From the NCBI GenBank assembly GCA_965233585.1, contig CBDDTI010000448.1:1-15171 (forward strand): a DNA stretch of 15,171 nucleotides, read 5' to 3'. The notes under the pieces are model-generated. The model saw nothing but the letters and a program-made list of their open reading frames with translations, was not told the origin of the DNA and did no database searches. Shown piece by piece: positions 1-15,171 of this stretch. The position numbers and the translations under genes were made by a program. The DNA is from a bacterium (GTDB taxonomy: Bacteria > SAR324 > NAC60-12). The number at the start of each line of letters is the position of its first letter. Within the stretch, counting starts at the first letter, position 1.

Positions 1-2
1 AC

Positions 3-2549
3 ATGAAAAAACGCAGACTTTCGGCCGAACTCAACTGGATAAAACGACTACAGACGCCATATCCTCTTGGCCTTAATGATCAGATCTACCAACAAGGGAA
101 CATATCATCCGTTCGCTCAAATATTAACGTCTTCTCATTGAAACCAGATGTTCGCAGAAAGCGTCGATCTCATGGTGTACGTCGCAATGGTCTCTCTAGG
201 AGAAAACAAAGACTGAATAGGTCCTTGGATGACCTTCTACGAATCGCCAAAAATAACGGTCGACACGAGCTCTTACATGCACTCTCTTCTATTCCGGTAT
301 CTCGAATGAAACCAATCCTGGATGAGGCAGACCGCAGAAGTTTACGACATTCAGATTGATTCAAACTTAAAATGATTATGGCTTTTTCGTTTAATAAACT
401 CTTTCCCCGCATACCTCCACTTCCTCCTTAAACACAGTTTATCAAAATTAAGTTCGTTAATCACGGCTTGGACTTGCTTAATATTTCCAACAGTTTCAGG
501 GATCACAGAGTCACCTCTAAAATCCCTCAGTATTTCGAGAATCTTGACCCTCCTCTTATTTGCTATCAGTACAAAAGTCCTATTCGAAATATCATTTTCA
601 ACTACAACCAAGTAACTTCTGATCCTGATGTTCTGAGTTCCATTCAGCCATCATGATCTTGTGCGGACTCACCGTTTCTGTATCCACCTGCTGGACATGT
701 TGTCACCGGTGACCTTACTTGTATTCCTGATAAAGGATTACGGTCTCTCTTTAAGAAAGGGCCTAAATACAGACTTCCATCCAGGATTGATTTTACTAAG
801 TGCCGGGATATTGTCGAGGATGCACTTCAGACGTATTGTAAACGTTGGTCCAAAAAGGAAGGCGTCGGAGTGCATGCCCTTAACGACTGGAAAAATGAAT
901 TTTTACGCATTATTGACATAAGAATAGACAATTTTACTAAACACCCACATTTGTTCAAACAGCCATCCAGTCGTTCAGTGAAGTCATTGAAAAAGAAAAT
1001 GGAGAAATTACACCGTAAATATGTCTTTGCTCCTGCCGATAAAGCAGCGAATAACGTGATCATTATTTGAAAAAGACACTACGTAGAGGTTTTGAAGGGT
1101 GAATTAAATTCTACGAGTACATACGCACCTGCTCAGTTGACGAAAGACCAACTTCTTGTGCATCATATCAATACTCTCACGAAAATAGATGTCAAAATTG
1201 ATAAATGTGAACTGCCTACATTTTATTGGTTGCCAAAATTACACAAACGTCCTTATAAATCACGTTTTATATCAAATTCAAGTCACTGCTCTACTACCAT
1301 TCTTTCGAAGCATATTACATCTGCTCTGACAGCTGTCAAAGATCATGTTATAAAGTACAGTGAAACTGCTTTTAGCAATAGTAATGTCAATTATTTTTGG
1401 TCCATTAAAAACTCTTCCGAGGTCATCGAAAAGTTGCGACTGCGTAACTTTCGGGGTTCTCAGGTATCTTCTTTCGACTTTTCTACTTTATACACCTCAT
1501 TGCCACATGATCTTATCAAAGCAAAAGTGTTGTCTCTTGTCAACTGGTGTTTCAACAGAGAGTCAAAAACGTACCTCTGTACTTCAGATAAGGCAGGGTT
1601 TTTTAGCAACAAGAAATATGACTCGTATAAATGTTGGTCTTGCGCGGAGTTATGTGAAGCTTTTACTTTCCTCATGGAAAACATATATGTGCAATTTGAT
1701 GGCATGGTATATCAACAAATAGTGGGGATTCCTATGGGCACCAATTGTGCTCCACTTATAGCAGATTTATTTTTATATTGTTACGAGAGGGACTTTATGT
1801 CTGACCTTCAAAAGTCGAAACGTTTTGACCTCATAGATATGTTCAACGATACCTCTCGATATCTTGACGATATTTTCACCATCGATAACCCTGAATTTGA
1901 GAAACATATTCCTGATATATATCCAGCTGAACTTCAGTTGAATAAAGCAAATACTTCAGACAAAGAAACTTCTTTCTTAGATTTAAATATAAAAGTTATT
2001 GGTAGTGACATTCATACCAGCGTTTACGACAAACGCGATGACTTCGGATTTCCTATCGTTAATTTCCCATGGTTGAGTGGTGACGTCCCTAGACTCCCAT
2101 CGTACGGTATTTACATTTCGCAGTTAGTTAGATTTGCTAGGTGTTGTACTAGCGTTTTGGATTTCCATTCTAAAAATCTCCAAATTACTTCAAAACTGCT
2201 GACACAGGGTTATAGATATCACAAGCTTCGAAAAACATTTGGAAAGTTCTTTAGATCATACTCTGAACTTCTGTCGAAATTTGGTGATATTTCGTTCCAA
2301 GAATATTTGTCAAAAGGAATCTCTCACCCGGTCTTCTACGGTGATCTAGTTTACAAACTAAGGAGGGTCAAAGACACACCTAATTTCATCTTGTCGGGTT
2401 CGAAAATAGTCAAACGCCTTCGACGACGACAGTATGACCCAGTGATCATCGAGAGGACTATAGGTCTTGTGCTTGGCCCTTCTACAGCCTTGTACGAACC
2501 GTTCCTAAAGCATTGCACTCTGACTAACAAGGCGGTGGGGACTATATGA
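3..2549 (+). pseudogene. Copy 1 EN-RT selenoprotein ORF, partial, with premature TAA
   Basis: One frame with TGA at 357, 654 and 1068 as in the other copies. AAA>TAA at 429-431 (AAA at 4267-4269 in copy 2), plus several private missense changes nearby. Confidence 0.85.
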
Positions 2550-2601
2550 CGGGCCTTGTCCAAACCTCCTCAGAGGCGACAGGGTCCTGATCTTTGTCCC
2601 C
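2537..2601 (+). promoter_or_regulatory. SECIS element, form II (copy 1)
   Basis: Helix I GGGGAC(2537-42)/GTCCCC(2596-2601); core ATGAC(2546-50)/TGAT(2588-91); helix II GGGCCTTGTC(2551-60)/GACAGGGTCC(2578-87); unpaired AAA(2562-64); apical mini-stem CCTC-ctca-GAGG. The basal stem extends with CTGACTAACAA(2520-30)/TTGTTAGTCGG(2607-17). Confidence 0.92.
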
Positions 2602-2784
2602 TCTGATTGTTAGTCGGGACTCCTTCAGCCATCAGACCTGAGCTCGCTTTCAGCCGGGCGGAGCACAGCCGGCCCTATTTGGATGTCGCTAAATATATTT
2701 TTGATATATAATATTTATTAACTATGCTGTGTGTGTATTGATTTTTATGACCTCTCCGCTTGGTGTGGCTGTTGGTTTGTTGTC

Positions 2785-2792
2785 TATATAAG
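2785..2792 (+). promoter_or_regulatory. Candidate TATA box in the 3' UTR/pseudo-LTR (also at 6623, 10354, 13895)
   Basis: TATATAAG matches TATAWAWR. A start ~30 nt downstream (~2815) would fall just before the ribozyme-like structure. Motif match only. Confidence 0.45.
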
Positions 2793-2826
2793 GAGGTTTA
2801 TTTACAAATTTTTAAATGTGTGTCCT

Positions 2827-2953
2827 TTTGATTACACGGCTGTTGCGGGGAGTGGGAAGGTGGGCCCGTAAACCGGTTAACCACACCAGTTGGGTGGCTG
2901 TAGTTACTCCAACTGACCGTCCTAAGTCGGTCCGCAATTGCTGTTTAATCGAA
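2827..2953 (+). ncRNA. Putative twister ribozyme, P5-type circular permutation (copy 1)
   Basis: P5 2830-2848/2932-2950; P2 GTGG(2852-55)/CCAC(2881-84); conserved GA(2856-57); T1 AGG(2858-60)/CCT(2921-23); L1 TAA(2878-80); T2 AC(2885-86)/GT(2926-27); P3 2887-2915; P4 ACCG/CGGT closing loop TCCTAAGT. P1 is weak (GCC/GGT). Folded manually. Confidence 0.75.
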
Positions 2954-3222
2954 CTTTTTTGTGGCGTTGTTTGTGTTGTCACTTTGCCCCTTTGACATTT
3001 CTGTTGGTATAGGGGCTTTTGTCATAGGACTGGGTCAGATCTCCTCCTTTTTGTCTTTATATCTACACTTATTCCCGGCTGCAGTGTGGAGCGTTGTAAC
3101 AAGGTTCCCCGCGTCCGGGTGTTTAAAGTGTCATTATTCATCTCATTCGAGTTCTGACTTAGTTGTGTGATAGATTCCTTTATACTACGGAATCTTTTCC
3201 CCACAATTACCCGAACCCCAAT

Positions 3223-6200
3223 ATGGCTACAAATTTACTGAATTGCAAAAATAGATCACCTCGAGTTTTACTCACTCCTCTTAGATTACCTTCTGTATCT
3301 TCACTTCATCTTCCTGGCGTTTCTTGTAAAAAACTGTTTACTACCACTAAAGTTGCACTTTCTCCCCTTCACTTTGGTTCTCCAAATTCCAAATCTCAGT
3401 CAGTTTCTAACTCGGGTCGGACTGCAAAGTCCTTTCGTCTCACTAATCGTATTAACAGAAGGTTTTCTAAGATATCCACGTGCAATGCTAGGAGATGTTT
3501 AACATGCCACCATATCTCATGCAAGTCAACTATAACATCCTCTATCAATGGCAAAAGATACGGCATCCAAATCGACAAAGACGTTGATTGAAATAGTTCA
3601 AATTTGATATACGTTATTACATGAGAAGCCAGGGGTTGTGGTGCTCAGTACGTCGGCGAAACATCTCAAAGCCTGAAAGGTCGCTTCCGCAGTCATTCGT
3701 TTAAAATCCGAAACAATTCTAGACGCAAATACAAGAACTTCTTATATGACCACTTCATTAAATATAATCATTCCATAGAAAATGTTACTATAACTCCAGT
3801 TGAAATTCTTTCTAAAAAACCTGGTGATTCGAAAAATGACATGAAAAAACGCAGACTTTCGGCCGAACTCAACTGGATAAAACGACTACAGACGCCATAT
3901 CCTCTTGGCCTTAATGATCAGATCTACCAACAAGGGAACATATCATCCGTTCGCTCACACATTAACGTCTTCTCATTGAAACCAGATGTTCGCAGAAAGC
4001 GTCGATCTCATGGTGTACGTCGCAATGGTCTCTCTAGGAGAAAACAAAGACTGAATAGGTCCTTGGATGACCTTCTACGAATCGCCAAAAATAACGGTCG
4101 ACACGAGCTCTTACATGCACTCTCTTCTATTCCGGTATCTCGACTGAAACCAATCCTGGATGAGGCAGACCGCAGAAGTTTACGACATTCAGATTGATTC
4201 AAACTTAAAATGATTATGGCCTTTTCGTTTAATAAACTCTTTCCCCGCATACCTCCACTTCCTCCTAAAACACAGTTTATCAAAATTAAGTTCGTTAATC
4301 AAGGCCTGGACTTGCTTAATATTTCCAACATTTTCAGGGATCACAGAGTCACCTCTAAAATCCCTCAGTATTTCGAGAATCTTGACCCTCCTCTTATTTG
4401 CTATCAGTACAAAAGTCCTATTCGAAATATCATTTTCAACTACAACCAAGTAACTTCTGATCCTGATGTTCTGAGTTCCATTCAGCCATCATGATCTTGT
4501 GCGGACTCACCGTTTCTGTATCCACCTGCTGGACATGTTGTCACCGGTGACCTTACTTGTATTCCTGATAAAGGATTACGGTCTCTCTTTAAGAAAGGGC
4601 CTAAATACAGACTTCCATCCAGGGTTGATTTTACTAAGTGCCGGGATATTGTCGAGGATGCACTTCAGACGTATTGTAAACGCTGGTCCAAAAAGGAAGG
4701 CGTCGGAGTGCATGCCCTTAACGACTGGAAAAATGAGTTTTTACGCATTATTGACATAAGAATAGACAATTTTACTAAACACCCACATTTGTTCAAACAG
4801 CCATCCAGTCGTTCTGTGAAGTCATTGAAAAAGAAAATGGAAAAATTACACCGTAAATATGTCTTTGCTCCTGCCGATAAAGCAGCGAATAACGTGATCA
4901 TTATTTGAAAAAGACACTACGTAGAGGTTTTGAAGGGTGAATTAAATTCTACGAGTACATACGCACCTGCTCAGTTGACGAAAGACCAACTTCTTGTGCA
5001 TCATATCAATTCTCTCACCAAAATAGATGTCAAAATTGATAAATGTGAACTGCCTACATTTTATTGGTTACCAAAATTACACAAACGTCCTTATAAATCA
5101 CGTTTTATATCAAATTCAAGTCACTGCTCTACTACCATTCTTTCGAAGCATATTACATCTGCTCTGACAGCTGTCAAAGATCATGTTATAAAGTACAGTG
5201 AAACTGCTTTTAGCAATAGTAATGTCAATTATTTTTGGTCCATTAAAAACTCTTCCGAGGTCATCGAAAAGTTGCGACTGCGTAACTTTCGGGGTTCTCA
5301 GGTATCTTCTTTCGACTTTTCTACTTTATACACCTCATTGCCACATGATCTTATCAAAGCAAAAGTGTTGTCTCTTGTCAACTGGTGTTTCAACAGAGAG
5401 TCAAAAACGTACCTCTGTACTTCAGATAAGGCAGGGTTTTTTAGCAACAAGAAATATGACTCATATAAATGTTGGTCTTGCGCGGAGTTATGTGAAGCTT
5501 TTACTTTCCTCATGGAAAACATATATGTGCAATTTGATGGCATGGTATATCAACAAATAGTGGGGATTCCTATGGGCACCAATTGTGCTCCACTTATAGC
5601 AGATTTATTTTTATATTGTTACGAGAGGGACTTTATGTCTGACCTTCAAAAGTCGAAACGTTTTGACCTCATAGATATGTTCAACGATACCTCTCGATAT
5701 CTTGACGATATTTTCACCATCGATAACCCTGAATTTGAGAAACATATTCCTGATATATATCCAGCTGAACTTCAGTTGAATAAAGCAAATACTTCAGACA
5801 AAGAAACTTCTTTCTTAGATTTAAATATAAAAGTTATTGGTAGTGACATTCATACCAGCGTTTACGACAAACGCGATGACTTCGGATTTCCTATCGTTAA
5901 TTTCCCATGGTTGAGTGGTGACGTCCCTAGACTCCCATCGTACGGTATTTACATTTCGCAGTTAGTTAGATTTGCTAGGTGTTGTACTAGCGTTTTGGAT
6001 TTCCATTCTAAAAATCTCCAAATTACTTCAAAACTGCTGACACAGGGTTATAGATATCACAAGCTTCGAAAAACATTTGGAAAGTTCTTTAGATCATACT
6101 CTGAACTTCTGTCGAAATTTGGTGATATTTCGTTCCAAGAATATTTGTCAAAAGGAATCTCTCACCCGGTCTTCTACGGTGATCTAGTTTACAAACTAAG

Positions 6201-6387
6201 GAGGGTCAAAGACACACCTAATTTCATCTTGTCGGGTTCGAAAATAGTCAAACGCCTTCGACGACGACAGTATGACCCAGTGATCATCGAGAGGACTATA
6301 GGTCTTGTGCTTGGCCCTTCTACAGCCTTGTACGAACCGTTCCTAAAGCATTGCACTCTGACTAACAAGGCGGTGGGGACTATATGA
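3223..6387 (+). CDS. GIY-YIG endonuclease / reverse transcriptase polyprotein, 1054 aa, with 5 putative selenocysteines (U123, U134, U325, U424, U562)
   Basis: ATG in AATATGG context. Continuous frame except TGA at 3589, 3622, 4195, 4492 and 4906. EN: CNARRCLTC...DUNSSNLIYVITUEARGCGAQYVGET...RFRSH...LYDHF...ELNWIKRLQTPYPLGLN. Linker: USC...GHVVTGDL...KGPKYR. RT: ADKAANNVIIIUK, YWLPKLHK, SFDFSTLYT, GIPMGTNCAPLIADL, RYLDDI, FLDL. Confidence 0.92.
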
Positions 6388-6439
6388 CGGGCCTTGTCCA
6401 AACCTCCTCAGAGGCGACAGGGTCCTGATCTTTGTCCCC
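6375..6439 (+). promoter_or_regulatory. SECIS element, form II (copy 2)
   Basis: Same sequence as 2537-2601. The core TGA at 6385-6387 is the ORF stop. Confidence 0.92.
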
Positions 6440-6664
6440 TCTGATTGTTAGTCGGGACTCCTTCAGCCATCAGACCTGAGCTCGCTTTCAGCCGGGCGGA
6501 GCACAGCCGGCCCTATTTGGATGTCGCTAAATATATTTTTGATATATAATATTTATTAACTATGCTGTGTGTGTATTGATTTTTATGACCTCTCCGCTTG
6601 GTGTGGCTGTTGGTTTGTTGTCTATATAAGGAGGTTTATTTACAAATTTTTAAATGTGTGTCCT

Positions 6665-6791
6665 TTTGATTACACGGCTGTTGCGGGGAGTGGGAAGGTG
6701 GGCCCGTAAACCGGTTAACCACACCAGTTGGGTGGCTGTAGTTACTCCAACTGACCGTCCTAAGTCGGTCCGCAATTGCTGTTTAATCGAA
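6665..6791 (+). ncRNA. Putative P5-type twister ribozyme (copy 2)
   Basis: Same sequence as 2827-2953. Predicted cleavage between 6716 and 6717. Confidence 0.75.
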
Positions 6792-6953
6792 CTTTTTTGT
6801 GGCGTTGTTTGTGTTGTCACTTTGCCCCTTTGACATTTCTGTTGGTATAGGGGCTTTTGTCATAGGACTGGGTCAGATCTCCTCCTTTTTGTCTTTAGTG
6901 ATAGATTCCTTTATACTACGGAATCTTTTCCCCACAATTACCCGAACCCCAAT

Positions 6954-9900
6954 ATGGCTACAAATTTACTGAATTGCAAAAATAGATCACCTCGAGTTTT
7001 ACTCACTCCTCTTAGATTACCTTCTGTATCTTCACTTCATCTTCCTGGCGTTTCTTGTAAAAAACTGTTTACTACCACTAAAGTTGCACTTTCTCCCCTT
7101 CACTTTGGTTCTCCAAATTCCAAATCTCAGTCAGTTTCTAACTCGGGTCGGACTGCAAAGTCCTTTCGTCTCACTAATCGTATTAACAGAAGGTTTTCTA
7201 AGATATCCACGTGCAATGCTAGGAGATGTTTAACATGCCACCATATCTCATGCAAGTCAACTATAACATCCTCTATCAATGGCAAAAGATACGGCATCCA
7301 AATCGACAAAGACGTTGATTGAAATAGTTCAAATTTGATATACGTTATTACATGAGAAGCCAGGGGTTGTGGTGCTCAGTACGTCGGCGAAACATCTCAA
7401 AGCCTGAAAGGTCGCTTCCGCAGTCATTCGTTTAAAATCCGAAACAATTCTAGACGCAAATACAAGAACTTCTTATATGACCACTTCATTAAATATAATC
7501 ATTCCATAGAAAATGTTACTATAACTCCAGTTGAAATTCTTTCTAAAAAACCTGGTGATTCAAAAAATGACATGAAAAAACGCAGACTTTCGGCCGAACT
7601 CAACTGGATAAAACGACTACAGACGCCATATCCTCTTGGCCTTAATGATCAGATCTACCAACAAGGGAACATATCATCCGTTCGCTCACACATTAACGTC
7701 TTCTCATTGAAACCAGATGTTCGCAGAAAGCGTCGATCTCATGGTGTACGTCGCAATGGTCTCTCTAGGAGAAAACAAAGACTGAATAGGTCCTTGGATG
7801 ACCTTCTACGAATCGCCAAAAATAACGGTCGACACGAGCTCTTACATGCACTCTCTTCTATTCCGGTATCTCGACTGAAACCAATCCTGGATGAGGCAGA
7901 CCGCAGAAGTTTACGACATTCAGATTGATTCAAACTTAAAATGATTATGGCCTTTTCGTTTAATAAACTCTTTCCCCGCATACCTCCACTTCCTCCTAAA
8001 ACACAGTTTATCAAAATTAAGTTCGTTAATCAAGGCCTGGACTTGCTTAATATTTCCAACATTTTCAGGGATCACAGAGTCACCTCTAAAATCCCTCAGT
8101 ATTTCGAGAATCTTGACCCTCCTCTTATTTGCTATCAGTACAAAAGTCCTATTCGAAATATCATTTTCAACTACAACCAAGTAACTTCTGATCCTGATGT
8201 TCTGAGTTCCATTCAGCCATCATGATCTTGTGCGGACTCACCGTTTCTGTATCCACCTGCTGGACATGTTGTCACCGGTGACCTTACTTGTATTCCTGAT
8301 AAAGGATTACGGTCTCTCTTTAAGAAAGGGCCTAAATACAGACTTCCATCCAGGGTTGATTTTACTAAGTGCCGGGATATTGTCGAGGATGCACTTCAGA
8401 CGTATTGTAAACGCTGGTCCAAAAAGGAAGGCGTCGGAGTGCATGCCCTTAACGACTGGAAAAATGAGTTTTTACGCATTATTGACATAAGAATAGACAA
8501 TTTTACTAAACACCCACATTTGTTCAAACAGCCATCCAGTCGTTCTGTGAAGTCATTGAAAAAGAAAATGGAAAAATTACACCGTAAATATGTCTTTGCT
8601 CCTGCCGATAAAGCAGCGAATAACGTGATCATTATTTGAAAAAGACACTACGTAGAGGTTTTGAAGGGTGAATTAAATTCTACGAGTACATACGCACCTG
8701 CTCAGTTGACGAAAGACCAACTTCTTGTGCATCATATCAATTCTCTCACCAAAATAGATGTCAAAATTGATAAATGTGAACTGCCTACATTTTATTGGTT
8801 ACCAAAATTACACAAACGTCCTTATAAATCACGTTTTATATCAAATTCAAGTCACTGCTCTACTACCATTCTTTCGAAGCATATTACATCTGCTCTGACA
8901 GCTGTCAAAGATCATGTTATAAAGTACAGTGAAACTGCTTTTAGCAATAGTAATGTCAATTATTTTTGGTCCATTAAAAACTCTTCCGAGGTCATCGAAA
9001 AGTTGCGACTGCGTAACTTTCGGGGTTCTCAGGTATCTTCTTTCGACTTTTCTACTTTATACACCTCATTGCCACATGATCTTATCAAAGCAAAAGTGTT
9101 GTCTCTTGTCAACTGGTGTTTCAACAGAGAGTCAAAAACGTACCTCTGTACTTCAGATAAGGCAGGGTTTTTTAGCAACAAGAAATATGACTCATATAAA
9201 TGTTGGTCTTGCGCGGAGTTATGTGAAGCTTTTACTTTCCTCATGGAAAACATATATGTGCAATTTGATGGCATGGTATATCAACAAATAGTGGGGATTC
9301 CTATGGGCACCAATTGTGCTCCACTTATAGCAGATTTATTTTTATATTGTTACGAGAGGGACTTTATGTCTGACCTTCAAAAGTCGAAACGTTTTGACCT
9401 CATAGATATGTTCAACGATACCTCTCGATATCTTGACGATATTTTCACCATCGATAACCCTGAATTTGAGAAACATATTCCTGATATATATCCAGCTGAA
9501 CTTCAGTTGAATAAAGCAAATACTTCAGACAAAGAAACTTCTTTCTTAGATTTAAATATAAAAGTTATTGGTAGTGACATTCATACCAGCGTTTACGACA
9601 AACGCGATGACTTCGGATTTCCTATCGTTAATTTCCCATGGTTGAGTGGTGACGTCCCTAGACTCCCATCGTACGGTATTTACATTTCGCAGTTAGTTAG
9701 ATTTGCTAGGTGTTGTACTAGCGTTTTGGATTTCCATTCTAAAAATCTCCAAATTACTTCAAAACTGCTGACACAGGGTTATAGATATCACAAGCTTCGA
9801 AAAACATTTGGAAAGTTCTTTAGATCATACTCTGAACTTCTGTCGAAATTTGGTGATATTTCGTTCCAAGAATATTTGTCAAAAGGAATCTCTCACCCGG

Positions 9901-10118
9901 TCTTCTACGGTGATCTAGTTTACAAACTAAGGAGGGTCAAAGACACACCTAATTTCATCTTGTCGGGTTCGAAAATAGTCAAACGCCTTCGACGACGACA
10001 GTATGACCCAGTGATCATCGAGAGGACTATAGGTCTTGTGCTTGGCCCTTCTACAGCCTTGTACGAACCGTTCCTAAAGCATTGCACTCTGACTAACAAG
10101 GCGGTGGGGACTATATGA
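6954..10118 (+). CDS. GIY-YIG endonuclease / RT polyprotein, 1054 aa, 5 putative selenocysteines (copy 3)
   Basis: Same protein blocks as copy 2 at constant offset 3731. TGA at 7320, 7353, 7926, 8223 and 8637; stop at 10116-10118. Confidence 0.92.
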
Positions 10119-10170
10119 CGGGCCTTGTCCAAACCTCCTCAGAGGCGACAGGGTCCTGATCTTTGTCCCC
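10106..10170 (+). promoter_or_regulatory. SECIS element, form II (copy 3)
   Basis: Same sequence as 2537-2601. Confidence 0.92.
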
Positions 10171-10395
10171 TCTGATTGTTAGTCGGGACTCCTTCAGCCA
10201 TCAGACCTGAGCTCGCTTTCAGCCGGGCGGAGCACAGCCGGCCCTATTTGGATGTCGCTAAATATATTTTTGATATATAATATTTATTAACTATGCTGTG
10301 TGTGTATTGATTTTTATGACCTCTCCGTTTGGTGTGGCTGTTGGTTTGTTGTCTATATAAGGAGGTTTATTTACAAATTTTTAAATGTGTGTCCT

Positions 10396-10522
10396 TTTGA
10401 TTACACGGCTGTTGCGGGGAGTGGGAAGGTGGGCCCGTAAACCGGTTAACCACACCAGTTGGGTGGCTGTAGTTACTCCAACTGACCGTCCTAAGTCGGT
10501 CCGCAATTGCTGTTTAATCGAA
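10396..10522 (+). ncRNA. Putative P5-type twister ribozyme (copy 3)
   Basis: Same sequence as 2827-2953. Predicted cleavage between 10447 and 10448. Confidence 0.75.
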
Positions 10523-10595
10523 CTTTTTTGTGGCGTTGTTTGTGTTGTCACTTTGCCCCTTTGACATTTCTGTTGGTATAGGGGCTTTTGTCATA

Positions 10596-13500
10596 AAACT
10601 GTTTACTACCACTAAAGTTGCACTTTCTCCCCTTCACTTTGGTTCTCGGGAAATTCCAAATCTCAGTCAGTTTCTAACTCGGGTCGGACTGCAAAGTCCT
10701 TTCGTCTCACTAATCGTATTAACAGAAGGCTTTTCTAAGATATCCACGTGCAATGCTAGGAGATGTTTAACATGCCACCATATCTCATGCAAGTCAACTA
10801 TAACATCCTCTATCAATGGCAAAAGATACGGCATCCAAATCGACAAAGACGTCGATGCTCTGAAATAGTTCAAATTTGATATATGTTATTACATGAGAAG
10901 CCAGGGGTTGTGGTGCTCAGTACGTCGGCGAAACATCTCAAAGCCTGAAAGGTCGCTTCCGCAGTCATTCGTTTAAAATCCGAAACAATTCTAGACGCAA
11001 ATACAAGAACTTCTTATATGACCACTTCATTAAATATAATCATTCCATAGAAAATGTTACTATAACTCCAGTTGAAATTCTTTCTAAAAAACCTGGTGAT
11101 TCGAAAAATGACATGAAAAAACGCAGACTTTCGGCCGAACTCAACTGGATAAAACGACTACAGACGCCATATCCTCTTGGCCTTAATGATCAGATCTACC
11201 AACAAGGGAACATATCATCCGTTCGCTCACACATTAACGTCTTCTCATTGAAACCAGATGTTCGCAGAAAGCGTCGATCTCATGGTGTACGTCGCAATGG
11301 TCTCTCTAGGAGAAAACAAAGACTGAATAGGTCCTTGGATGACCTTCTACGAATCGCCAAAAATAACGGTCGACACGAGCTCTTACATGCACTCTCTTCT
11401 ATTCCGGTATCTCGACTGAAACCAATCCTGGATGAGGCAGACCGCAGAAGTTTACGACATTCAGATTGATTCAAACTTAAAATGATTATGGCCTTTTCGT
11501 TTAATAAACTCTTTCCCCGCATACCTCCACTTCCTCCTAAAACACAGTTTATCAAAATTAAGTTCGTTAATCAAGGCTTGGACTTGCTTAATATTTCCAA
11601 CATTTTCAGGGATCACAGAGTCACCTCTAAAATCCCTCAGTATTTCGAGAATCTTGACCCTCCTCTTATTTGCTATCAGTACAAAAGTCCTATTCGAAAT
11701 ATCATTTTCAACTACAACCAAGTAACTTCTGATCCTGATGTTCTGAGTTCCATTCAGCCATCATGATCTTGTGCGGACTCACCGTTTCTGTATCCACCTG
11801 CTGGACATGTTGTCACCGGTGACCTTACTTGTATTCCTGATAAAGGATTACGGTCTCTCTTTAAGAAAGGGCCTAAATACAGACTTCCATCCAGGGTTGA
11901 TTTTACTAAGTGCCGGGATATTGTCGAGGATGCACTTCAGACGTATTGTAAACGTTGGTCCAAAAAGGAAGGCGTCGGAGTGCATGCCCTTAACGACTGG
12001 AAAAATGAGTTTTTACGCATTATTGACATAAGAATAGACAATTTTACTAAACACCCACATTTGTTCAAACAGCCATCCAGTCGTTCTGTGAAGTCATTGA
12101 AAAAGAAAATGGAAAAATTACACCGTAAATATGTCTTTGCTCCTGCCGATAAAGCAGCGAATAACGTGATCATTATTTGAAAAAGACACTACGTAGAGGT
12201 TTTGAAGGGTGAATTAAATTCTACGAGTACATACGCACCTGCTCAGTTGACGAAAGACCAACTTCTTGTGCATCATATCAATACTCTCACCAAAATAGAT
12301 GTCAAAATTGATAAATGTGAACTGCCTACATTTTATTGGTTACCAAAATTACACAAACGTCCTTATAAATCACGTTTTATATCAAATTCAAGTCACTGCT
12401 CTACTACCATTCTTTCGAAGCATATTACATCTGCTCTGACAGCTGTCAAAGATCATGTTATAAAGTACAGTGAAACTGCTTTTAGCAATAGTAATGTCAA
12501 TTATTTTTGGTCCATTAAAAACTCTTCCGAGGTCATCGAAAAGTTGCGACTGCGTAACTTTCGGGGTTCTCAGGTATCTTCTTTCGACTTTTCTACTTTA
12601 TACACCTCATTGCCACATGATCTTATCAAAGCAAAAGTGTTGTCTCTTGTCAACTGGTGTTTCAACAGAGAGTCAAAAACGTACCTCTGTACTTCAGATA
12701 AGGCAGGGTTTTTTAGCAACAAGAAATATGACTCATATAAATGTTGGTCTTGCGCGGAGTTATGTGAAGCTTTTACTTTCCTCATGGAAAACATATATGT
12801 GCAATTTGATGGCATGGTATATCAACAAATAGTGGGGATTCCTATGGGCACCAATTGTGCTCCACTTATAGCAGATTTATTTTTATATTGTTACGAGAGG
12901 GACTTTATGTCTGACCTTCAAAAGTCGAAACGTTTTGACCTCATAGATATGTTCAACGATACCTCTCGATATCTTGACGATATTTTCACCATCGATAACC
13001 CTGAATTTGAGAAACATATTCCTGATATATATCCAGCTGAACTTCAGTTGAATAAAGCAAATACTTCAGACAAAGAAACTTCTTTCTTAGATTTAAATAT
13101 AAAAGTTATTGGTAGTGACATTCATACCAGCGTTTACGACAAACGCGATGACTTCGGATTTCCTATCGTTAATTTCCCATGGTTGAGTGGTGACGTCCCT
13201 AGACTCCCATCGTACGGTATTTACATTTCGCAGTTAGTTAGATTTGCTAGGTGTTGTACTAGCGTTTTGGATTTCCATTCTAAAAATCTCCAAATTACTT
13301 CAAAACTGCTGACACAGGGTTATAGATATCACAAGCTTCGAAAAACATTTGGAAAGTTCTTTAGATCATACTCTGAACTTCTGTCGAAATTTGGTGATAT
13401 TTCGTTCCAAGAATATTTGTCAAAAGGAATCTCTCACCCGGTCTTCTACGGTGATCTAGTTTACAAACTAAGGAGGGTCAAAGACACACCTAATTTCATC

Positions 13501-13659
13501 TTGTCGGGTTCGAAAATAGTCAAACGCCTTCGACGACGACAGTATGACCCAGTGATCATCGAGAGGACTATAGGTCTTGTGCTTGGCCCTTCTACAGCCT
13601 TGTACGAACCGTTCCTAAAGCATTGCACTCTGACTAACAAGGCGGTGGGGACTATATGA
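10596..13659 (+). pseudogene. Copy 4 EN-RT ORF lacking start codon, with three small insertions near its 5' end
   Basis: Insertions of +2 (~10648), +1 (10730) and +4 (10857-60) relative to copy 2. The frame is otherwise colinear from ~10861 to the stop. Confidence 0.85.
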
Positions 13660-13711
13660 CGGGCCTTGTCCAAACCTCCTCAGAGGCGACAGGGTCCTGA
13701 TCTTTGTCCCC
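13647..13711 (+). promoter_or_regulatory. SECIS element, form II (copy 4)
   Basis: Same sequence as 2537-2601. Confidence 0.92.
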
Positions 13712-13936
13712 TCTGATTGTTAGTCGGGACTCCTTCAGCCATCAGACCTGAGCTCGCTTTCAGCCGGGCGGAGCACAGCCGGCCCTATTTGGATGTCGCT
13801 AAATATATTTTTGATATATAATATTTATTAACTATGCTGTGTGTGTATTGATTTTTATGACCTCTCCGCTTGGTGTGGCTGTTGGTTTGTTGTCTATATA
13901 AGGAGGTTTATTTACAAATTTTTAAATGTGTGTCCT

Positions 13937-14063
13937 TTTGATTACACGGCTGTTGCGGGGAGTGGGAAGGTGGGCCCGTAAACCGGTTAACCACACCAGT
14001 TGGGTGGCTGTAGTTACTCCAACTGACCGTCCTAAGTCGGTCCGCAATTGCTGTTTAATCGAA
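13937..14063 (+). ncRNA. Putative P5-type twister ribozyme (copy 4)
   Basis: Same sequence as 2827-2953. Predicted cleavage between 13988 and 13989. Confidence 0.75.
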
Positions 14064-14166
14064 CTTTTTTGTGGCGTTGTTTGTGTTGTCACTTTGCCCC
14101 TTTGACATTTCTGTTGGTATAGGGGCTTTTGTCATAGGACTGGGTCAGATCTCCTCCTTTTTGTCT

Positions 14167-15171
14167 ATGTTTAACATGCCACCATATCTCATGCAAGTCA
14201 ACTATAACATCCTCTATCAATGGCAAAAGATACGGCATCCTAATCGACAAAGACGTTGATTGAAATAGTTCAAATTTGGTATATGTTATTACATGAGAAG
14301 CCAGGGGTTGTGGTGCTCAGTACGTCGGCGAAACATCTCAAAGCCTGAAAGGTCGCTTCCGCAGTCATTCGTTTAAAATCCGAAACAATTCTAGACGCAA
14401 ATACAAGAACTTCTTATATGACCACTTCATTAAATATAATCATTCCATAGAAAATGTTACTATAACTCCAGTTGAAATTCTTTCTAAACAACCTGGTGAT
14501 TCAAAAAATGACATGAAAAAACGCAGACTTTCGGCCGAACTCAACTGGATAAAACGACTACAGACGCCATATCCTCTTGGCCTTAATGATCAGATCTACC
14601 AACAAGGGAACATATCATCCGTTCGCTCAAATATTAACGTCTTCTCATTGAAACCAGATGTTCGCAGAAAGCGTCGATCTCATGGTGTACGTCGCAATGG
14701 TCTCTCTAGGAGAAAACAAAGACTGAATAGGTCCTTGGATGACCTTCTACGAATCGCCAAAAATAACGGTCGACACGAGCTCTTACATGCACTCTCTTCT
14801 ATTCCGGTATCTCGACTGAAACCAATCCTGGATGAGGCAGACCGCAGAAGTTTACGACATTCAGATTGATTCAAACTTAAAATGATTATGGCTTTTTCGT
14901 TTAATAAACTCTTTCCCGAATACCTCCACTTCCTCCTAAAACACAGTTTATCAAAATTAAGTTCGTTAATCAAGGCCTGGACTTGCTTAATATTTCCAAC
15001 ATTTTCAGGGATCACAGAGTCACCTCTAAAATCCCTCAGTATTTCGAGAATCTTGACCCTCCTCTTATTTGCTATCAGTACAAAAGTCCTATTCGAAATA
15101 TCATTTTCAACTACAACCAAGTAACTTCTGATCCTGATGTTCTGAGTTCCATTCAGCCATCTTGATCTTGT
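14167..15171 (+). mobile_element. Naiad-type PLE copy 5, 5'-truncated, frameshifted, runs off window
   Basis: Starts at ATGTTTAACATGCC (equivalent to 3495). 1-bp deletion near 14915-14919 (TTTCCCGAATA vs TTTCCCCGCATA). Confidence 0.92.

Follow-up and report, generated by a model that had tools for sequence, protein, structure and literature searches.

Retrotransposons of the Naiad clade of Penelope-like elements are known to encode proteins with several selenocysteine (Sec) residues in two clams and two spiders (Craig et al., 2021, PMC8557442). The available text of that paper gives Naiad_Scon and Naiad_Sdum four in-frame UGA codons each and Naiad_Mmer and Naiad_Smim three; all four elements have Sec at the Cys ahead of the GIY motif and at the Cys eight residues past the DKA motif (DKA+8), and those of the clams also have it at the first Cys of the CCHH finger. 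The selenocysteine insertion sequence (SECIS) elements are reported as type I in all four, and lie 1–21 nucleotides (nt) after a UAA or UAG stop codon or, in Naiad_Mmer, 7 nt after an assumed UGA stop. Our literature search for further selenoprotein transposons, from which most subscription journals were absent, returned this paper alone as relevant. Here we analyse contig CBDDTI010000448.1 of assembly GCA_965233585.1, the whole 15,171 nt of which we call the window. We consider it highly probable that the window is a partial tandem array of a Naiad-clade element whose five in-frame UGAs would be read as Sec via one SECIS, and the host genome is probably that of a bivalve-like invertebrate. 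An earlier reading of the letters of the window, hereafter the original prediction, had seen a retrotransposon polyprotein recoded with five Sec and had pointed to the multi-Sec Naiads of spiders and clams. The phenomenon is indeed already published, and the element is a Naiad retroelement, but ‘polyprotein’ was loose wording for a single endonuclease–reverse transcriptase (EN-RT) protein; what the window adds is a new family of Naiad selenoprotein elements.

The open reading frame (ORF) at issue is that of the second element copy, and its features, read with TGA as Sec (U), are listed below.

3223..6387, forward strand: EN-RT ORF, 1054 codons plus terminal TGA
3589..3591, forward strand: UGA codon 123, the Cys ahead of the GIY motif
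3622..3624, forward strand: UGA codon 134, the first Cys of the CCHH finger, within the GIY-YIG core
4195..4197, forward strand: UGA codon 325, in the linker, at a non-Cys column
4492..4494, forward strand: UGA codon 424, the first Cys of the CxC motif
4906..4908, forward strand: UGA codon 562, the Cys eight residues past DKA

All five internal in-frame stops are TGA, with zero TAA or TAG in the frame, and the nearest in-frame stops outside it are a TAG at 3160 upstream and a TGA at 6442 and a TAA at 6547 downstream. The remaining five frames of the same interval hold 39–107 stops each; TGA makes up 58 of the 143 stops in the two forward-strand off-frames, at which rate five TGAs out of five would arise by chance with a probability of about 0.011. 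Trp is encoded in the ORF by TGG (eight codons) and Cys by TGT or TGC (24 codons), and across the five copies TGA is retained at 22 of 22 covered internal sites and at four of four terminal ones. The original prediction had described this pattern (one frame, nothing but TGA stops, retention in every covering copy, TGG for Trp and TGY for ordinary Cys), and each part of it is borne out by the counts.

The strongest evidence comes from the residues that homologues carry where the window has TGA. We took these from pairwise BLASTP alignments of 195 homologues, divided at 45% identity to the window protein, with the following result.

Column 123: Cys in 79 of 79 below 45%; W in 6 of 6 at 45% or above
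Column 134: Cys in 82 of 82 below 45%; W in 5 and C in 1 at 45% or above
Column 325: variable below 45% (C in 10 of 102, L in 11, a gap in 14, others in the rest); W in 6, L in 3 and N in 1 at 45% or above
Column 424: Cys in 121 of 122 below 45%; W in 5 and C in 4 at 45% or above
Column 562: Cys in 128 of 129 below 45%; W in 11 and C in 5 at 45% or above

In the distant relatives, Cys makes up at least 90% of the residues at only nine columns (87, 92, 95, 123, 134, 139, 424, 426 and 562; at 426, the second Cys of CxC, the count is 114 of 122), and TGA occupies four of them, for which the chance that at least four of five randomly placed positions would do so is 2.6e-8. Four UGAs replace four of the family's nine invariant Cys, and one stands at a variable linker site. 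The assignment of four TGAs to typical Cys sites (two in the GIY-YIG region, the first C of CxC and the C after DKA) had been made from the sequence of the window itself, and the homologues agree with it at every one. They were also inspected for the opposite outcome, TGAs on Trp columns, and none of the four lies on such a column: W was never found there in relatives below 45% identity. The features of a eukaryotic selenoprotein gene, i.e. in-frame UGA against Cys in homologues (here for four of the five UGAs) and a SECIS downstream, are present in this predicted gene.

The W of the close relatives is a presumptive TGA, read by a gene caller set to TGA=Trp. Window positions 6373-6549 translated in table 4 give ...VGTIW RALSKPPQRRQGPD...PLW LLVGT..., which is the tail of seven database relatives, while the proteins of five further close relatives stop exactly at ...KAVGT(I/L), residue 1054. 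Other calls break at the internal TGAs: P0055 (56% identity) starts seven residues past column 134 and ends directly before column 562, P0081 also ends directly before column 562, P0154 and P0191 start five to six residues past it, and P0049 starts two past column 424, which is the behaviour expected of a standard-code caller. That standard annotation would miscall the element had been anticipated, and the relatives, cut at TGAs or read through with W, illustrate it, as does the ORF listing of the window, which yields a 485-residue fragment. Many relatives (e.g. P0002-P0006, P0009, P0056, P0120) have been translated with TGA=Trp through the SECIS into the 3' untranslated region (UTR), and others have been cut at the TGAs; evidently automated callers choose a Mycoplasma-type code on contigs rich in the element.

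The same reasoning can be applied to codon 325, which has no Cys column to support it. A search with the fragment M207-D324 gave 63 matches, 40 of them reaching the column. In 21 of the 40 the protein call ends exactly at residue 324 (identity 60–100%, four of these at 60–65%), and the rest comprise 14 with W, two with L, one that ends five residues early and two that differ otherwise. Where one caller stops and another reads W, the codon is TGA; the fifth UGA is thus old and retained, though not a Cys replacement.

Individual relatives show which sites are TGA and which are Cys. In P0009 (57% identity) each of the five columns is W. Column 424 is a genuine Cys in P0002 and P0003 (91%), column 134 is Cys in P0097 (86%), and P0055 has N at 325 and C at 424. 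Column 562 is Cys in P0007 and P0012-15 (47–50%) but W in P0008, P0010, P0011 and P0018. The nine rows with TGA at 562 all fall, in a 22-row maximum-likelihood tree, in one 14-row clade (support 100/99) together with five Cys rows, so that at least two changes of state have occurred at this column. The only named matches are Pinctada imbricata RT fragments in gene models (59–68% identity over 17–24% of the query). One database gene model, P0023, has the N-terminal endonuclease of another, Cys-type (oyster-like) Naiad in front of 178 C-terminal residues that are 99% identical to the window protein, which suggests that the two Naiad types are neighbours in the same genome.

The SECIS lies at the end of the ORF, and the stop codon is part of it. 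The relevant positions are as follows, with the helix and core taken from the fold of copy 2.

2538-2600, 6376-6438, 10107-10169 and 13648-13710, forward strand: SECIS of copies 1, 2, 3 and 4, Rfam SECIS_1 (RF00031)
6376-6380 with 6434-6438, forward strand: SECIS helix I
6384-6387 (AUGA) and 6426-6429 (UGAU), forward strand: SECIS core
6385..6387, forward strand: stop codon of the ORF and at once the UGA within the core AUGA (6384-6387)

Each match to SECIS_1 scores 42.1 bits (gathering threshold 35; E 8.3e-6), with one per unit; as the four are identical copies, they count as one independent observation. The minimum free energy of the fold is -36.8 kcal/mol (z -3.1), and none of 200 shuffles was equally stable. 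Helix II has about 10 bp, and an unpaired AAA (6400-6402) is followed by a 4-bp apical mini-stem; the element therefore looks type II-like (AAA in a bulge plus mini-stem), as judged from the fold and not from a SECISearch3 grade. The original prediction had a SECIS following the ORF. Its presence stands, at 42.1 against 35 bits; the simple position after the ORF does not, since the terminal TGA is inside the core and the SECIS overlaps the final 12 nt of the ORF. No other Rfam family, hammerhead included, was found in the window at E up to 1. Further into the 3' UTR, a block at 6707-6769 (...AAACCGGTTAACCACACCAGTTGG...CCAACTGACCGTCCTAAGTCGGT; equivalents in copies 1, 3 and 4) resembles by eye the consensi of Naiad_Mmer and Naiad_Scon, despite proteins that are only about half identical. 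It comprises two hairpins whose stems differ in sequence yet still pair; Rfam gives no match for it, and 6676-6800 folds weakly (z -1.72, with 12 of 200 shuffles as good). The block may be an RT-recognition or 3'-end element.

Variation among the copies bears on whether the frame has been maintained, and a comparison of dN/dS (nonsynonymous to synonymous rates) across the TGAs had been proposed as a check. We listed the variants by hand, counted shared ones once and dropped one mismatch adjacent to an indel. The ORF then has 25 unique variant sites, 15 synonymous and 10 nonsynonymous, with dN/dS of about 0.19; given a synonymous-site fraction of 0.22, the binomial P is 4.7e-5, or 0.006 with transitions only. 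Each inter-TGA segment, and the one past the last TGA, contains synonymous changes. The synonymous excess indicates that the copies descend from sources that diverged under purifying selection on the whole frame.

The protein read through the five codons has the layout of a Naiad: a GIY-YIG endonuclease (residues ~84-235), a KR-rich linker with CxC (~250-440; the motif is U424-S-C426), DKA at 552-554, and an RT with catalytic residues D698 (motif A) and D828-D829 (motif C), some 80 residues separating D698 from Q778/G781, the interval between motifs A and B in which Naiads have an insertion-in-fingers domain (IFD). D552, K553, A554, D698 and D828 are invariant in an alignment of 17 sequences (A1), where D829 reaches at least 90%, and all of D552-K553-A554, D698 and D828-D829 are at least 90% conserved in one of 101 sequences (A4). 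The endonuclease finger CX2-5CxxC is C87-x4-C92-x2-C95 (Cys in 58 of 62, 65 of 67 and 66 of 69 distant relatives, respectively), and the Cys columns counted for the CCHH finger, U134 and C139, are Cys in 82 of 82 each. Relatives are abundant: a word-indexed search found 47, and phmmer 31,686 representatives at E<=0.001, of which 1,880 at E<=1e-30. Among the 17 aligned sequences, Pfam recognizes PF01541 (GIY-YIG) in 10 and PF00078 (RVT_1) in seven. The 101-sequence profile matches, in the Protein Data Bank (PDB), I-TevI (1ln0) over positions 62-146 (E 7e-4) and a group II intron RT (6me0) over positions 707-778 (E 3e-5).

An AlphaFold (AF2) model built on the 101-sequence alignment has a mean predicted local distance difference test (pLDDT) score of 86.9 and a predicted template modelling (pTM) score of 0.74; pLDDT falls below 50 only at residues 1-79, 260-266 and 1047-1055, and codon 325 is the first residue of a predicted helix (325-339). 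The top 15 PDB matches of the model in Foldseek are all chains of telomerase RT (TERT; E 5e-11 to 4e-7), with TM-scores that are low (0.22–0.29 of the query) because the query is multi-domain. Together with an N-terminal GIY-YIG domain before the RT, CxC, DKA rather than DKG, the finger motifs, partial tandems and the lack of a canonical hammerhead, this TERT-like RT gives the element the features of the Naiad clade: it is a Naiad-type Penelope-like retrotransposon with a single EN-RT gene. The N-terminal residues 1-79 (3223-3460) are predicted to be disordered (pLDDT <50) and carry a PLRLPSVSSLHLP / LSPLHF motif, which also occurs, repeated, at the N-termini of Naiad_Mmer and Naiad_Scon in the available supplement of Craig et al. 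(2021, PMC8557442).

By direct-repeat analysis the window consists of one repeated unit only, in five head-to-tail copies with start-to-start spacings of 3838, 3731, 3541 and 3400 nt. Pairwise alignments were referred to copy 2, the longest unit.

1..3059, forward strand: copy 1, cut by the window start; equals 3839-6897 of copy 2
3060..6897, forward strand: copy 2, 3838 nt, with 5' leader 3060-3222, ORF, and 3' UTR 6388-6897 ending ...CTCCTTTTTGTCTTTA
6898..10595, forward strand: copy 3, begins 107 nt further in than copy 2; 3' end ~33 nt short
10595..14166, forward strand: copy 4, 5'-truncated within the ORF, no ATG; ends 3 nt short
14167..15171, forward strand: copy 5, 5' truncation deeper than in copy 4; a 1-nt deletion; runs past the window end

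The 5' starts move progressively inward (copy 3 at 3167, copy 4 at ~3330 and copy 5 at 3495 in copy 2 coordinates), and the 3' end is common to copies 1 and 2. Only copies 2 and 3 hold the whole ORF, neither with a frameshift or extra stop; that of copy 3 (6954-10118) is intact and has a single, synonymous difference from copy 2. Copy 1 has its TGAs at 357, 654 and 1068 and its terminal TGA at 2547, with an additional TAA nonsense codon at 429-431 (K349). In copy 4, three insertions (2, 1 and 4 nt, near 10648, 10730 and 10857) precede the first TGA. All ORFs are on the forward strand, and the window holds no inverted element copy, the sole inverted match being a short palindromic stretch in each copy. 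No tRNA genes were found in the window, and Tandem Repeats Finder gave no report because the unit is longer than its maximum period of 500.

At the junction of copies 3 and 4 (10594-10596) a 3'-shortened end meets an internal ORF position with a 1-nt (A) overlap, and the junction of copies 4 and 5 (14166-14167) differs in that copy 4 stops 3 nt before the usual 3' end. Variants are shared in a mosaic (copies 1 and 5 share three, 1 and 4 three, 3 and 5 one, and 4 and 5 one; sites 3612, 3831, 3958/3960, 4221, 4306, 4683 and 5011 in copy 2 coordinates), and therefore the array did not arise by simply duplicating one insertion. It may owe this pattern to insertions in succession from different sources, to template switching or to gene conversion. 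Partial tandems with variable 5' truncation are the layout given for Penelope-like elements in the available text of Craig et al. (2021, PMC8557442).

How far should the Sec reading be trusted against other explanations of the same TGAs? The copies might be dead pseudogenes in which ordinary nonsense TGAs were multiplied by tandem duplication or from a defective master, and the hairpin might resemble a SECIS by accident. There is a real TAA in copy 1, copies 4 and 5 have indels and 5' truncations, standard gene callers find fragments only and, as array copies share ancestry, TGA retention within the window alone is weak evidence. We nevertheless hold this to be very improbable, the least probable of the alternatives considered here, because four of the five TGAs coincide with invariant Cys columns, of which there are nine (P ~3e-8), the same columns are TGA in relatives down to 47–60% identity, copies 2 and 3 are without TAA, TAG or frameshift, the synonymous excess is found downstream of every TGA, and the SECIS exceeds the curated Rfam cut-off. 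Scarcely less improbable is that UGA is translated as something other than Sec, through a host code in which it means Trp or Cys or through near-cognate tRNAs (Trp, Cys, Arg) that read leaky stops without Sec machinery. UGA followed by C is a leaky stop context, and a C does follow the terminal UGA; reading W through the database relatives also yields long open frames. Yet the same ORF spells Trp as TGG eight times and Cys as TGY 24 times, distant relatives have Cys rather than Trp at the columns, and a bona fide SECIS is present. Moreover, a sense UGA would extend the ORF through the SECIS to the TAA at 6547, whereas relatives are similar only over the SECIS part of that extension and then diverge or shift frame, and the calls of five close relatives end exactly at residue 1054. 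We know of no metazoan nuclear code with a reassigned UGA.

Recoding could also be partial, with only some UGAs read as Sec, a truncated main product (the EN part to codon 325, or a peptide to codon 123) and rare full-length EN-RT, so that selenium supply would tune transposition. Sec decoding competes with termination, according to the available text of PMC9599142; one SECIS is shared by five UGAs, and codon 325 lies at the EN/linker boundary and not at a Cys column. This, too, we regard as unlikely, if a little less so than the two explanations above: the signal of purifying selection persists past codons 325 and 562, a product without RT cannot transpose in cis, and codon 325 is L in two of 40 relatives and N or L in more distant ones, so that no stop is required there. 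Several observations do weigh against reading all five codons as Sec in a working element. Damage or truncation affects three of the window's five copies, the window contains the element alone and so offers no host gene for comparison, and the selection test is small, at 25 sites. Pfam returned no relevant match for the window protein itself at E up to 1, so domain identity rests on relatives, profile and fold. Codon 325 is not a Cys column, which leaves a Sec at that site without an obvious role. A search for Sec-redefinition stem-loops downstream of each of the five UGAs found none, the 80-nt stretches giving z of +0.7 to +1.5 against shuffles. A SECIS that overlaps the end of the ORF is unusual for eukaryotes, and with five UGAs on one SECIS, little full-length protein is to be expected unless decoding is processive. 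Finally, we infer Sec insertion, and even transcription, from the DNA.

Should the five UGAs indeed be decoded as Sec, we propose that the mRNA of the element would recruit the host's SECIS-binding protein, Sec-specific elongation factor and Sec-tRNA through the SECIS, and that all five codons, 1.5–2.8 kb upstream of it, would be decoded processively as in selenoprotein P. Translation would then end at the sixth UGA, inside the SECIS core, which we propose is not itself recoded because the ribosome has melted the SECIS on arrival. Sec would be placed in presumed metal-binding or redox Cys clusters, i.e. at the Cys before GIY, in the CCHH finger, in CxC and beside DKA. Transposition would proceed, like that of other Penelope-like elements, by target-primed reverse transcription, leaving 5'-truncated tandem copies that each carry a SECIS.

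Selenoprotein transposons have so far been the subject of a single paper and four families, and the family in the window exceeds every mobile element seen so far in its number of UGAs. Taken together with its relatives in the database, this family indicates that Sec and Cys have repeatedly taken each other's place at given columns of a single clade. It would thus be a compact natural system in which to study the reasons for having Sec instead of Cys in presumed metal-binding motifs, and the number of UGAs that a single SECIS can support. We offer, as a tentative idea that we rate somewhat below even, that the window belongs to a wider, undescribed radiation of selenoprotein Naiads with turnover of Sec sites, in which CCHH, CxC and DKA+8 would flip between Sec and Cys, the non-Cys linker Sec would have arisen and been kept down to 60% identity, and the core UGA would serve as both stop and recoding signal. 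If this is so, nearly half of the invariant Cys of the family are Sec and transposition depends on the host's selenium supply, while each 5'-truncated copy spreads a working SECIS through the genome. Because standard gene callers shred these genes or resort to a Mycoplasma-type code, invertebrate assemblies carry them mis-annotated, and this can mislead genetic-code inference on contigs.

Among known systems outside the transposons, selenoprotein P has many UGA-Sec codons in one mRNA decoded from 3' SECIS elements, but is a host selenium-transport protein of unrelated sequence. Selenoprotein P usually has two SECIS elements, whereas the window element has one per unit. Bivalve SelenoP is the extreme case of many UGAs, as cited in the available text of Craig et al. 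(2021, PMC8557442). The GPx4-like gene of fowlpox virus shows that a SECIS within a coding region can work in eukaryotes, according to the available text of Mix et al. (PMC1802603), and shares with the window a eukaryote-type SECIS that overlaps coding sequence; there the entire SECIS is within the ORF, whereas here only its first 12 nt are and the stop codon is part of the core.

The closest comparison remains with the Naiads themselves, in so far as the available text and supplement of Craig et al. (2021, PMC8557442) allow. The spider elements Naiad_Sdum and Naiad_Smim (Stegodyphus) are also multi-Sec, with a 3' SECIS and UGA before GIY and at DKA+8, but put Sec in the CX2-5CxxC finger, where the window has TGY (C87, C92, C95); an independent origin has been inferred for them, and their IFD is reduced. 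We compared the consensi of the clam elements, Naiad_Mmer (Mercenaria mercenaria) and Naiad_Scon (Sinonovacula constricta), by eye. They share with the window an N-terminal GIY-YIG, CxC, DKA, the RT, partial tandems, the lack of a canonical hammerhead, a SECIS at the ORF end, a similar N-terminal PLRL..S.HLP motif and exactly three UGA sites, at the Cys before GIY, the first CCHH Cys and DKA+8. The SECIS of Naiad_Mmer is alike in helix I and core, its helix II differing in sequence and still pairing, and in its supplement context the core UGA is in frame there too, followed by UAA.

Set against these likenesses, the window has five UGAs to the three of Naiad_Mmer and the four of Naiad_Scon. 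The first CxC Cys is TGA here but TGC or TGT in both clam elements, and codon 325 is TGA here but Pro in both, so that two of the five UGA sites of the window are new relative to the published elements; conversely, Naiad_Scon has a UGA at RT6(D) and the window does not. The ORF of the window meets no UAA, UAG or upstream UGA before the SECIS and stops on the core UGA, whereas the published Naiads stop upstream, and its SECIS is type II-like by fold against the type I reported for all four. Identity to the clam elements in the EN region is roughly half, judged by eye; with about every second EN residue different, and sense codons there at the CxC and linker sites, the window represents a different family of the same clade. 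Beyond the original prediction, our analysis has placed the stop codon within the SECIS, found the fifth TGA to be conserved and shown that not all copies are intact. Relative to the published Naiads, as far as that paper's available text describes them, the family adds an ORF that has five UGAs and ends on the UGA of the SECIS core, together with two further predicted Sec sites, one at the first Cys of CxC and one, conserved, at a position that is not a Cys.

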